A stretch of DNA of 37,475 nt from positions 84,653 to 122,127 of the IMG/VR virus record IMGVR_UViG_3300026512_000004; one strand, 5' to 3'. The notes under the pieces were generated by a model, which saw only the letters and a program-made list of their open reading frames with translations, had not been told where the DNA came from and ran no database searches. The translations under genes and the position numbers were made by a program. Positions 18,701-22,103 of this stretch are shown piece after piece. This DNA is from a virus. Taxonomy: Duplodnaviria > Heunggongvirae > Uroviricota > Caudoviricetes. The first letter of the stretch is position 1. Every line of letters starts with the position of its first letter.

Positions 18701-19710
18701 GATAACTTAAACTGAATATTGTCAAAAACATCGTGTATCTTCTCATAAGTATCTTCAGATTTGTAGAAACCTTGTTTGTAATCGTAAGTAGTAGCCTTGT
18801 ATTTGTGATGCCACTCTTGATACCAGGCGGGAATAATACACGTATGACGCTCTATAGCCTTGAGCAATTCTAGTTGTATCTGGTCACCAATAGAAAGTTG
18901 ACCCTGTGAAGTTGCTTGTTGTATATACGGATCTAATTTGTTAGCTATAGAATAACGTGACACATCTACAGAATCTTGACCACGTAGTTTGGCAATCCTA
19001 CGTGCTTTCCAGATAGAAAGACCCATCTGCATAGCCATTATAGGTAACATAAAACCTAAGCTACTAGACATAAACGGACCAACATGAGGAATACGTGCAA
19101 TACCGCCTAAAAGACCCTTCCAGGCGCCACCAAGACCAACCATATTTAGAGCGTTGTTGAACAAAGACATCATAGGATTACCAATCCCAGCCATCCAAAT
19201 ACTGTGAGGACGATGAACACCAAACGTAGTTAAAAGATTGCCAATTGTGTGATGTCCTGTCGCCCTAAGTAAACCACCTAAGACCTGAGCTTGAAAAAAC
19301 GGTCCGCGCACCAAATAATCAAGTAAACTCACAGTATTCATGTATTTCTCAATAACACCTGGAGCACCCATCTGAGCCAATTCCTGACGCTGATAGATAG
19401 GCTTAAAAGTGCGGCGAACATTAGAGAACCCTTTAAGCACAAGATAAGGAGCAACAATAGAAGCGCCTAAAGCAGCCTCTTTGGTAGCATCTTGTGCAGA
19501 TTTAAGCATCGCCTCACCAAACCCACGCATATAACGAGCACCCATAGTTACCCAAGTGAATCCAGGAATACGGCGAGCAACAGCTGCATAACGACGCATA
19601 TATGTTTCATAAGCTTGTCTGGCTTCTTGTTGAGCAGCTACTCGTTCACCAGGAGTTAACGATTGTAAATATGTCATATTGCGGAGTTGTTGATATTGCT
19701 GAGGAAGCAT
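15772..19710 (-). CDS. Tape measure / hub-like protein with a GH108 muramidase domain
   Basis: 1312 aa, helical and Gly/Ala-hydrophobic. Contains the KKIPILSAIAG...GDFSGAALEFGSGLASTVPGYGTVASIGLDAAL motif, then KEGLLSADSDDPGGMTFMGI...FDTAVNMG...YLHGWLTR. Confidence 0.8.
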   Translation of the reverse strand: MLPQQYQQLRNMTYLQSLTPGERVAAQQEARQAYETYMRRYAAVARRIPGFTWVTMGARYMRGFGEAMLKSAQDATKEAALGASIVAPYLVLKGFSNVRRTFKPIYQRQELAQMGAPGVIEKYMNTVSLLDYLVRGPFFQAQVLGGLLRATGHHTIGNLLTTFGVHRPHSIWMAGIGNPMMSLFNNALNMVGLGGAWKGLLGGIARIPHVGPFMSSSLGFMLPIMAMQMGLSIWKARRIAKLRGQDSVDVSRYSIANKLDPYIQQATSQGQLSIGDQIQLELLKAIERHTCIIPAWYQEWHHKYKATTYDYKQGFYKSEDTYEKIHDVFDNIQFKLSELINKFDPFSQLMTFLLTGRTPRRTLEILRQIRGEDRKELEKRRLALGVSYSQFRLMSTSGPQLVASVPDAAKQLTLLTASYDLQRFILAELTSIRRYGFGLRSTIAYQPEERKSILGRLLSGIQSIIDSIPGLSALVNVATVAVKGVRTIHRAIQAIPRTGDILREGLVKLRDKLFGEFSVLVKDRKLLLEKAGLALTQEKVRESAFTFLGKYYPQIMQEIVQLEYRKVGLLEEIAESTGEVADFLLKNRGLRERRERIRERYERVVEKKSLVWDPLTGRYLTQKEVQQVYQQRKERLYNILQKAFRSSPLGQLTSFFSGRPKINETFISQLAYSTLSHQQEIPLSLFQHTRAPLLTVQRVTSRAKQALLSRLEEERKEEREKKTEEYRERQLSLLERVVDELDKLNSLVKRQARQKPKEVKNLITSIADKFGGMFKGAFSFFAGAVASQIAGLLGKVFSKLGGFIGKIFKVPDFLKKPKVSVKPSGVIDFAKSALQKGRKLLSKIGLDELLEKGAKYLPKVGLKSLAKKIPILSAIAGTIFAAKRLLSGDFSGAALEFGSGLASTVPGYGTVASIGLDAALIAHDLKRQDVSGIVEVAQNNASNYGSDFAKAFSFVISKEGLLSADSDDPGGMTFMGISRRSYPDWEGWRFVDKHDFKTAASLVPRFYYEKFWKPLSLDKVPNSRIRLYIFDTAVNMGIPTAKRLVAKALGVLGVKKENIKEGLQVVRERGLEGKFLTHLHNLRVSRYEYIAKVRRGAKKYLHGWLTRAEQAYHSIDNSVFKRKPEEPLDAWHARVIAHHREQQRAENILAIALRHASPIAERYGIPEDVLKIYLTKSKEAQKILQSAYEQYGGLRGVPFGVIQAAIRLRKRYDRVHNWEKVLPDVPVQEYRVTVRRPVELDTTATRVERVVHRRFEQDVRRNEQILPPLPPTANTLTSSIAPEQEQLSEFDRELLETYPNLFVQRSLTYIVS

Positions 19711-19713
19711 TGG

Positions 19714-20451
19714 TTACGTTACAATTATATAGCGCAAGTCTTGTTCATCATCAACATCATAAATAATCTCAGGTAAATCATGTAAATGTTGTTCACCAGT
19801 TTTTGGCTTATCTTTTACAACAACAGGTGTTCTAGATAACGTTTCAGCTAACTGGTTGGAAACGGTTACATCTACTACACTTATTAACTTACTATACCAC
19901 ATCTTACGAGCATATGCACAAAAACACGCTGCCATAAACAAGTCGGATTTATATCCTTTTGGTATTTCAATATTGCCCTGATTATTACGACGAGCATTAA
20001 GCAACTGATTTTTCAAGTCTTGAGAACGTATAATAGACGGGTTGTCACAAACGTGTTGGTAAAAGAGACTAGTCATAATGCCCTTTGTTTGACCGGTAGT
20101 TTGAACTCCATAGATACGTTCACCACGTTTCTCTTCGTAGTAAAGAAGAGGTTCAAATTCGGGGTCATCTTGAAACGACTCTACGACAGCTTGACCTATA
20201 GAATTACGCTCTATAGCTATTACAATATTGTCTCCAACTTGACTTCTTAGCCAAGAAACAGCATTCTTAGCAAGTTCTGCAAACTTGTGTAAAGATCCAA
20301 TACGTCCAAAAGCTTCTGCTACTTGTTTAAATTCACGGAAAGTAAACACTTCTATGGCACAAAGCGCACCGTTGACAGAAGCAGCTGTGTCAATACCGAC
20401 GATATAATAGTCAGTAGGATCAAAACTATCCTCAAAAACAGCTAAGCGCAT
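19714..20451 (-). CDS. Terminase large subunit, C-terminal RNase H-fold nuclease half
   Basis: YYIVGIDTA (first Asp), IAIERNSIGQAV, GVQTTGQTK, KSDLFMA. Confidence 0.9.
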   Translation of the reverse strand: MRLAVFEDSFDPTDYYIVGIDTAASVNGALCAIEVFTFREFKQVAEAFGRIGSLHKFAELAKNAVSWLRSQVGDNIVIAIERNSIGQAVVESFQDDPEFEPLLYYEEKRGERIYGVQTTGQTKGIMTSLFYQHVCDNPSIIRSQDLKNQLLNARRNNQGNIEIPKGYKSDLFMAACFCAYARKMWYSKLISVVDVTVSNQLAETLSRTPVVVKDKPKTGEQHLHDLPEIIYDVDDEQDLRYIIVT

Positions 20452-20477
20452 ACTATAGATATTTGTATCTAAATAAC

Positions 20478-20638
20478 ATCCCTGCGGCCCTCAAGACTGG
20501 TGGCCCGGCACCGGTCTGACCTGGAAAACCGGGATTCCAGGTCAAGAGGGTTACCCGTTACCACACCAACTATCTAAACACGTAGGGCGGTTGTAAAAAT
20601 CGTGTGGTAACGGGGGACGCAGGGATCTTTTTGTTTTT
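20478..20638 (+). ncRNA. Candidate structured non-coding RNA (149 nt plus U-rich tail) with kissing-loop potential
   Basis: Stems P1 20478-86/20618-26 (9 bp), P2 20487-92/20546-51, P3 20494-502/20509-17, P4 20518-26/20535-43 and P5 20554-66/20602-14 (13 bp). Non-Watson-Crick positions are G-U on the + strand; followed by CTTTTTGTTTTT. Confidence 0.75.
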
Positions 20639-20715
20639 ATAATCTGATGCTACTATAATTTCTTTTCGAAAAATATCGGTACAGAAATCGACCCAAACTA
20701 GTTAACTCTTTTTCG

Positions 20716-21702
20716 CTACGTTTCAACTTCACTCAAATTCACATAAAACTTCGGACTTTCGGGTTTTATTGCTTTCAAAACATCATCAGGAAATACACAC
20801 TCAGTAGACGCTCTAAACTCTAAATCTAACTCCTGAGCAATAGCACGCTCGTCCCAGTTTAACTCACGACACTGTTCTAAATACCACTGTTCGTCTTTCT
20901 CAGGATCTTCAGACCAATGATATTTAATGCGGATAAAACCATTCTTCAACTCAGAAGAAACAGCCTCCTGATACGCTTGCATGTAGTCAGGGCGTAATAA
21001 ATCACTATCACCTGCAAATACGTAAGAATCGTCAATTGCATTTTCCCACATCTGATAAAACCACTTACCAGTACCTTCTACACCATTAGGCGTTGAAGAC
21101 AAGAGAATAAAATAAGGATAGTTGTAATGTTTAGCTTGTTCTCTGGCACGAGAAAGTGCAGGTTGCGCCGCAGTATAAGCTTCATGAATTCCACGAATAA
21201 AAGCAGCCTCATCTATATAAAGAACAGTACCAGTTAAACCACGTGCTAATTGTTCAGGCGGTGTATTAGAAGAAGGGTAAAAAATGGAGAGACGTGATCC
21301 ATGAGCAAAATCAATATAGTGTTTGATGTTAGGGTCGGATTTTAGAGGTATCTTTAACCACGGCGGTAAGTGATTATAGGCAAATTTAACCTTCTCTATG
21401 TTGTCGTATGCAGTTGACTTACGGTAATTAATAATAACAGCAAGAGTACCAGGATAGAAAAGACATGCCCATAAGAGTAAACCCGCCGCTATAGTAGATT
21501 TGCCCAATTGACGTGAAGCCATTAGAATAACACGGTGAAAAATAAGACATGCTCGTACTGTTCGTCTAAGCTTAGTATGCATTAGAGACAAATCATAACG
21601 TCGTGGATGATAAAGTTCACTAAAGTGAAAGTAGTTGTTTATAAAGTAGAAAGGCGATTTGCGACACTTATACCACTCAAGAAGAATTTGCTTTTTGTCC
21701 AT
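20716..21702 (-). CDS. Terminase large subunit, N-terminal ATPase half
   Basis: EWYKCRKSPFYFINNY, Walker A ASRQLGKST, Walker B VLYIDEAAF, motif III LSSTPNG, AQELDLEF; stops at TAG before the nuclease domain. Confidence 0.92.
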   Translation of the reverse strand: MDKKQILLEWYKCRKSPFYFINNYFHFSELYHPRRYDLSLMHTKLRRTVRACLIFHRVILMASRQLGKSTIAAGLLLWACLFYPGTLAVIINYRKSTAYDNIEKVKFAYNHLPPWLKIPLKSDPNIKHYIDFAHGSRLSIFYPSSNTPPEQLARGLTGTVLYIDEAAFIRGIHEAYTAAQPALSRAREQAKHYNYPYFILLSSTPNGVEGTGKWFYQMWENAIDDSYVFAGDSDLLRPDYMQAYQEAVSSELKNGFIRIKYHWSEDPEKDEQWYLEQCRELNWDERAIAQELDLEFRASTECVFPDDVLKAIKPESPKFYVNLSEVET

Positions 21703-21767: not shown

Positions 21768-22079
21768 CTAATCGTTAAACTCTTTCTCAAGGTCCTCAAG
21801 TTTGCGAATATTTTCAGCATACTTAGTCAATTCATCAGGATTAACGCCTTTTCTTTCCAACTCCTGATGTAGTTTACCAACTTCTTGTCTCAATTTTTCA
21901 TACTCACGAAACTTCTCTTTCATCTCCGCTTTACCAGCTCTATGACCAAAATAAGATCCGCCTAAGAATCCTGCAACACCGCCTAAAGTCATACCTGTTT
22001 TTAATGTAGAACCTTGTGGAGCATAAGTTATTGTTTGACCCGATGTCTGTTCAATAAGTAGCTTATAAACCTGAAACAT
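21768..22079 (-). CDS. Glycine-zipper small protein, putative internal head protein
   Basis: MFQVYKLLIE leader, TGMTLGGVAGFLGGSYFG segment, charged coiled-coil tail. Confidence 0.6.
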   Translation of the reverse strand: MFQVYKLLIEQTSGQTITYAPQGSTLKTGMTLGGVAGFLGGSYFGHRAGKAEMKEKFREYEKLRQEVGKLHQELERKGVNPDELTKYAENIRKLEDLEKEFND

Positions 22080-22103
22080 ACAGATATTTCCTTTAAAGGT
22101 CCT

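Follow-up and report, generated by a model that had tools for sequence, protein, structure and literature searches.

A T4-type large terminase most likely made as two proteins, an ATPase and a nuclease, in a hydrothermal-vent phage

Is a T4 gp17-type large terminase whose ATPase and nuclease lie in two genes made as two proteins that act in trans, or are its halves rejoined into one chain? The question is raised by a window of 37,475 nucleotides (nt), the whole stretch of DNA analyzed here, which covers positions 84,653 to 122,127 of the Caudoviricetes record IMGVR_UViG_3300026512_000004, a 122-kb IMG/VR virus record from a hydrothermal-vent metagenome with an estimated completeness of 51%. 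On the minus strand of the window, terL-N (20716..21702) encodes an ATPase chain of 328 amino acids (aa) that ends in ...VFPDDVLKAIKPESPKFYVNLSEVET before a TAG stop codon (20716-20718), and terL-C (19714..20451) encodes a 245-aa RNase H-like nuclease chain that begins with MRLAVFEDSFDPTDYYIVGIDTA at an ATG (20449-20451) lacking a Shine–Dalgarno sequence (SD). Between them lies a non-coding spacer of 264 nt (20452..20715). The two genes share a reading frame, yet six further in-frame stops (3 TAG, 1 TAA and 2 TGA) bring the total between the halves to seven, with all three kinds represented. Ahead of the terL-C ATG, the frame is open for 13 codons (GPQGCYLDTNIYS-M) and an AGATA/TATCT hairpin is found at 20457-20470, while the open reading frames (ORFs) inside the gap reach 30-31 aa at most. 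The end sequences, shared frame, six stops, 13 open codons, missing SD and hairpin had all been recorded in a preliminary description of this DNA, and each was borne out when the sequence was re-read. As set out below, the large terminase is most likely made as two separate proteins, a reading to which we give about three chances in four.

Both chains could be assigned to their halves of the terminase. Apart from its ORF, terL-N is identified by a match to Pfam Terminase_6N (E 6.5e-14) and by matches to the T4 gp17 structures 3ezk, 2o0h and 3cpe (E 1.9e-13), and it carries the Walker A (SRQLGKST), Walker B (VLYIDE) and STPNG motifs, with G67, K68, S69, D164, E165 and T204-G207 invariant in alignment A1. 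The nuclease chain was not detected by the Pfam search alone; its identity is given by its ORF, alignment A3 and a structure profile. Compared with intact homologues, some of them carrying PF17289, it shares 33-39% identity with their nuclease portion and retains the catalytic residues D21 (in GIDTA), E81 (in IERN) and the Asp of DLFMA. Within A3, D21 and E81 are invariant and the DLFMA Asp is present in every row that covers it (P0090 ends before it). The A3 profile further matches the nuclease domains of RB49 (3c6a) and T4 gp17 (3ezk), with D21 aligned to gp17 D401. Alignment of both halves to intact homologues, a check proposed at the outset, revealed that the joined halves are collinear with them, the break adding no more than about 5 and 2 residues (A1 and A3). 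On its other side, the terL-C stop ends 3 nt before the ATG of a 1312-aa tape-measure-like gene (19710-19714), so that terL-C is tightly packed with its downstream gene, while terL-N and terL-C are not packed in this way.

The split is present in several samples. In three studies (runs X1; X2 and X3; X4), Logan contigs that are 90-99% identical to the window span the insert and both junctions. Because these independent contigs bridge both junctions, the split is not an assembly artefact, and the worry that the gap might be a chimera, raised in the preliminary description, was thereby settled. The same contigs provided strain variants of both genes. Counted as lower bounds from the substitutions listed, with codon positions worked out by us, 16 of 17 substitutions in terL-C and 14 of 15 in terL-N fall at third codon positions (30/32 for both ORFs together), the pattern of purifying selection on both halves. 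In the gap, by contrast, strains differ by indels of 1, 2 and 3 nt, which disrupt the frame common to both ORFs. It follows that the gap does not code for protein, that its length can vary and that the two ORFs are in frame with each other by accident.

A relative is split as well. P0090, 75% identical to terL-C, is encoded on the 625-nt metagenomic contig L091 of sample ERZ23491537, where the ATPase-frame tail ...AIKPVKPISYVNLGELDPADVQPRSTGG-TAA is followed, after 1 nt, by GTG-AAA-CTG-GCC-GTA-TTT, which opens (M)KLAVFEEN... in another frame. The GTG start is preceded by a GGAGG SD at 5-nt spacing, and this start-capable codon occupies the residue of the window's ATG (M/V-K-LAVFE vs M-R-LAVFE). 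Since the codons for the flanking strands, VNL and LAVFE, are 55 nt apart in L091 vs 15 nt in intact homologues, the junction is one between genes and not a one-base error, and it reads as two genes with translational coupling. No structured insert was found at the L091 junction. Hence, the split either came before the insert or arose independently of it, and rejoining the halves does not require the RNA element in the window's spacer (see below). A survey of relatives for split status against presence of the RNA element, which the preliminary description had proposed, thus yielded one relative, and that relative speaks against a rejoining role of the RNA. Closer relatives did not emerge from the other searches: IMG/VR yielded only L002, at 52% identity, and a metagenome scan returned a single distant match. 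The stand-alone nuclease halves P0091, P0099 and P0111, retrieved by an exhaustive protein search, turned out to be exons that follow introns, and none represents a split at the window's site.

Where does the break fall in the fold? An AF2 model of residues 255-572 of the intact homologue P0005, with pLDDT values above 90 for 61-80, displayed a helix followed by a tight beta-hairpin (E63-68, a two-residue turn, E71-75) ahead of the catalytic-Asp strand. The window's break maps to the turn of this hairpin, with KFYVNL as strand 1 and (R)LAVF as strand 2. By extrapolation from the profile alignment, the break corresponds to gp17 residue ~380, which is ~20 residues past the N360/C360 hinge. In the fold, the break lies ~25-30 residues past the hinge, in the beta-hairpin turn. 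The split had originally been placed at the inter-domain linker, which is imprecise, given that the turn is inside the start of the C-terminal domain. By this mapping, terL-N keeps the hinge and ~30 more residues (a helix and the beta-strand KFYVNL) that structurally belong to the C-terminal domain. A third sequence appears to end at the same place: in L003:555-1568 (P0012, 43% identical), the ATPase ORF stops at the same beta-hairpin (...DLPVLS-TGA) and the contig ends 45 nt later, so that L003 may represent either an intron or a third lineage with the split.

A complex model of the two window chains gave an ipSAE of 0.85, vs 0.00 for the best control; 58 of 80 solved complexes attained this mark, as did 2 of 110 mismatched pairs. 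Contacts agreed between runs to at least 94%, with a partner pLDDT of at least 78. The tightest modeled contacts join residues 317-322 of the N-half to residues 3-6 of the C-half, the N-half helix 304-315 packs on C-half residues 131-155, and tail residues 296-326 form the modeled interface. Because one-chain TerL structures have already been solved, this pass shows likeness to those structures; it locates the break and is no proof of binding.

That the two proteins work in trans was one of the options offered in the preliminary description, and it is the one supported by the L091 junction, in which stop, SD and GTG follow one another without an insert, and by the purifying selection on both halves. 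We infer that the window phage makes two separate translation products that then dock, the nuclease from terL-C and, from terL-N, the ATPase together with the hinge, one helix and one beta-strand. In this mechanism, the ATPase tail, consisting of strand KFYVN and the preceding helix, would dock on the first nuclease strand, LAVF, with no covalent bond, and docking would re-form the first beta-hairpin of the C-terminal domain by strand complementation. The split would predate the divergence from the 75%-identical relative, and the 264-nt spacer would be a secondary addition to the junction, with no part in rejoining. The missing SD before terL-C is not unusual, because about half of the long ORFs of the record, including terL-N and the tape-measure gene, also have no SD at their first ATG.

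Several points weigh against production in two chains. The 264 nt that separate the two genes in the window phage, without coupling, leave balanced amounts of the two chains unexplained. Between the exon end and the insert, 8 bp can pair (GAAGUUGA with UCGAUUUC), much as in a group I P1, and the U-G of this pairing is so placed that a splice ending in G could be in frame and collinear. The relative without an insert is known from one metagenomic contig of 625 nt, in which a frameshift or assembly error is conceivable. Finally, a working two-chain motor is not a given, as T4 gp17 split at its linker or hinge lost DNA translocation (PMC3012670). That experimental cut was made at the hinge, however, while the natural break described here falls within the beta-hairpin with which the C-terminal domain opens. 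The hinge, helix and strand that the model leaves on the ATPase chain could explain why the natural split works, unlike the T4 hinge cut.

We turn to the spacer, which most likely holds a small structured RNA gene antisense to terL, composed of a putative promoter, the RNA and a putative terminator; we infer that it is transcribed from the plus strand. A promoter-like motif, TATAGATATTT (20454..20464, plus strand), starts 24 nt before a GC-rich structured RNA core (20478..20626, plus strand), leaves 13 nt between and points into it. In the predicted fold, P1 (20478-20486 with 20618-20626) closes a junction with two branches. The P2 branch is made of twin 9-bp hairpins whose loops, CCCGG (20504-20508) and CCGGG (20529-20533), are complementary, and P5 is a 13-bp hairpin (20554-20566 with 20602-20614), all on the plus strand. 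Directly after P1 follows the T-run CTTTTTGTTTTTAT (20627..20640, repeat D1), terminator-like on the plus strand only, and an AT-rich variable spacer (20641..20715) separates this RNA cassette from the terL-N stop. Besides the core, the 122-kb record has only three further GC islands.

The fold, too, is asymmetric between strands. For the 291-nt segment 20440-20730, the z-score is -5.5 on the plus strand and -4.7 on the minus strand, and the core alone folds at -82.5 kcal/mol on plus vs -73.8 on minus, with the plus-strand G-U pairs t20498-g20513 and g20487-t20551 becoming C-A mismatches on the minus strand. The listed strain changes within the core affect loops and junctions only and spare the stems; the twin hairpin loops are untouched, with a G>A at 20503 adjoining them. 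The AT-rich spacer, in turn, varies by insertions and substitutions at 20648, 20652, 20663, 20668, 20675 and 20694. In an abundant haplotype of run X2, ~50 nt (20632 to 20683) are skipped, with the GC-rich core retained, as is the first T5 of the T-run; X2 variants also disrupt the small hairpin that precedes the terL-C ATG.

The motif TATAGATATTT is likely to represent a phage promoter class. The 122-kb record contains six exact copies of it, all on the plus strand, where our composition estimate predicts ~0.4, and five of the six are intergenic by our reading of the ORF list. The copies, of which the others are at positions 20729, 47631, 48724, 53190 and 61751 of the record (G000), often have GAAC before the motif. 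One-mismatch copies are located upstream of plus-strand genes, and TACAGATATTT at window positions 22079-22089 is a one-mismatch copy. Compared with the T4 late promoter TATAAATA, the motif has one difference in the first eight positions. A sigma-70 consensus scan did not call it, and a simple terminator scan did not call the T-run, the latter because the stem closes a multi-branch structure.

No relative of the RNA was identified. Rfam returned no family at E≤1 on 2.5 kb nor at E≤10 on 341 nt, with chance-level matches only, and ARAGORN detected neither a tRNA nor a tmRNA in the window. Further copies of the core were absent from the 122-kb record and, by a degenerate 22-mer, from IMG/VR; of two genome-contig scans, the first gave none and the second only two unrelated palindromes. 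At the insert flanks, neither a target-site duplication nor terminal inverted repeats were seen. The assignment to the antisense strand is thus drawn from the promoter-like motif, the fold asymmetry and the T-run, all of which are on the plus strand; no homologue of the RNA was found, so covariation does not enter. It is improbable, at about one chance in ten, that the structured RNA is functionally tied to the two-chain terminase, either as an antisense regulator of the ratio of the chains or as a packaging component like the phi29 pRNA. If it were tied to packaging, the complementary twin loops could link copies of the RNA.

Two copies of another structured element were noted in the record, outside the window. 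L089:1040-1300 (G000 51339-51599) and L090:1066-1312 (G000 61765-62011) are ~90% identical, GC-rich structured 5′ leaders before plus-strand genes, which begin with the anti-SD-like AAAGGACCUCCUUC and end with AAAGGAGGU-ATG. They have no Rfam match, and the change from CGCAG/UUGCG to CGUAG/UUACG between them looks compensatory. Such leaders could act as regulatory elements that sequester the SD.

An intron was the obvious first guess for the window, because introns and inteins fill the terL genes of its relatives. The terL homologues, 40-52% identical, comprise intact terminases of 552-574 aa along with many fragments. Mapping an intact homologue onto the fetched loci located Rfam-confirmed group I introns at three other terL positions (L002:3411-3656, 111.8 bits; L092:2225-2484, 104 bits; L014:2538-2675, 55.6 bits). 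The inserts L004:4066-5010 and L006:4330-5310 share the conserved core blocks of these introns and contain an internal ORF, probably a homing endonuclease. Group I introns thus occupy five or more different sites in related terL genes, with the common core blocks AATTCAG, CTGAGC and GTGCAACGACTAT. In addition, L092:557-1780 and L013:1047-2056 are in-frame inserts of ~1 kb in Walker A, between MASRQLGK and STIAA. With LAGLIDADG-like sequence in L092, these would be inteins at the same site, as judged for L092 and probably also for L013. Both kinds of element are well known in phage terL genes, as in Campylobacter phage IBB_35 (PMC3322345) and the Jug phages (PMC12880540). All of these intron- or intein-bearing relatives (L002, L092, L014, L004, L006 and L013) are continuous at the window's break.

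Against this background, the insert could, on the sense strand of terL, be a self-splicing intron that belongs to no catalogued type; its removal would restore a one-chain terminase and make the bordering ATG and stop incidental. The terL of this clade is a hot spot for introns, a good fold is also predicted for the sense strand (the z of -4.7 above), and the P1-like pairing of GAAGUUGA with UCGAUUUC combines a U-G with a G-terminal in-frame acceptor, although a pairing so short is weak on its own. Splices between GUU and CGC, or between GU and U-AUG, would be in frame and exactly collinear. Moreover, RF00028 does not cover all group I subtypes, and the Jug-phage study used separate subtype models (PMC12880540). 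We nevertheless consider an intron unlikely, at roughly one chance in ten. Rfam gave no match even at the permissive threshold on 341 nt, while the relatives' introns score 55.6-111.8 bits, and the clade core block GTGCAACGACTATCC is absent from the gap at up to 3 mismatches. The nested three-way junction could not be threaded by hand onto a P3-P8/P4-P6 pseudoknot, with no room for P7 or P3′. The core is ~9 kcal/mol more stable on the antisense strand, where the promoter-like motif and T-run also are, and its G-U pairs turn into C-A on the sense strand. Finally, the 75%-identical relative is split at the same residue without an insert and with an SD and a GTG. The proposal that the halves are rejoined by splicing, with P1 shortening the gap, was therefore not upheld, given no Rfam family, no clade group I core and a better fold on the antisense strand.

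A somewhat less probable alternative, which we rate a little below one in ten, retains two proteins and assigns the structured element to the terL mRNA. Here, it would act in cis on the sense strand, compacting the spacer or recruiting ribosomes so that terL-C is coupled to terL-N. Such an element would be present in any co-transcript running from terL-N to terL-C, terL-C has no SD of its own, and a closed P1 would cut the effective spacer from 264 to ~115 nt. This distance is, however, still far past those known for termination-reinitiation, and the strand asymmetry, motif and T-run favor the opposite strand. One haplotype, moreover, does without ~50 nt of the spacer, X2 variants lack an intact small hairpin ahead of the ATG, and L091 needs no such element.

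Ribosomal bypass as in T4 gene 60, or readthrough by recoding, would also give one chain, and the shared frame in this strain and a stop soon after the collinear point are in its favor. We regard it as very improbable. The gap has seven stops of all three kinds, on which account recoding and readthrough were rejected. It measures 264 nt and varies in length, against 50 nt in gene 60, and strain indels break the shared frame. The rejoining by bypass suggested earlier fails in particular on its codons, as the take-off codon ACG (ACG-TAG) has no matching landing codon near the ATG. A split intein that acts by trans-splicing was also rejected, with no intein fragments found and only the about 5 and 2 extra residues at the break, and no homing endonuclease was found between the pieces in the gap (ORFs of 30-31 aa only), while L091 has no insert at all. 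An assembly artefact or a decaying gene, conceivable for a single metagenomic record of 51% estimated completeness, is equally improbable in view of the bridging contigs of three studies, the purifying selection on both halves and the intact catalytic motifs.

We thus return to two chains acting in trans as the best explanation. A full-text literature search revealed no description of a natural T4-type terminase split into ATPase and nuclease genes. Current models of T4-type motors place the force-generating movement at the covalent ATPase-nuclease hinge, and a natural, selected two-chain motor that is cut one hairpin further along and retains the hinge in its ATPase chain could be used to ask to what extent such a motor depends on covalent continuity, and could provide a template for engineered split terminases. 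For annotation, a split terL should not be assumed to be an intron in clades whose terL is rich in introns and inteins, and pipelines will miscall such genes. The antisense cassette, for its part, is a candidate phage small RNA from a vent community.

Compared with T4 gp17, whose type is represented in Pfam by Terminase_6N and Terminase_6C, the window's terminase belongs to the same family by sequence. It has the Walker A and Walker B motifs, the coupling motif and, in the nuclease, Asp/Glu/Asp, and it follows the same domain order, with halves collinear with intact homologues of 552-574 aa. It differs in being encoded as two polypeptides with seven stops between the halves, and in having a relative, L091, with a stop/SD/GTG junction. 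The group I introns of phage terL resemble the window's insert in being structured, non-coding inserts of a few hundred nt with in-frame stops, in the same gene and clade, but the insert has neither an RF00028 match nor the core blocks, its fold is favored on the opposite strand, and the same break occurs without an insert in L091. The spacer itself is comparable to phage morons and small-RNA cassettes, as a compact unit of promoter-like motif, structured product and T-run placed in an intergenic junction, whereas its putative product is an RNA that does not code for protein, belongs to no known family and runs antisense to the flanking operon.

Genes in pieces are established among T4-like phages, where nrdA of Aeh1 is split by a free-standing homing endonuclease and where gp43 is split and gp39/60 is likewise found in pieces. 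As in these cases, an essential phage enzyme would here be made as two separately translated, reassembling chains, with inserted DNA that made the split or fills it. The present locus differs in that the gap contains no homing endonuclease or notable ORF, only a small RNA-like cassette, that the enzyme affected is the packaging motor, and that a relative is split without any insert.

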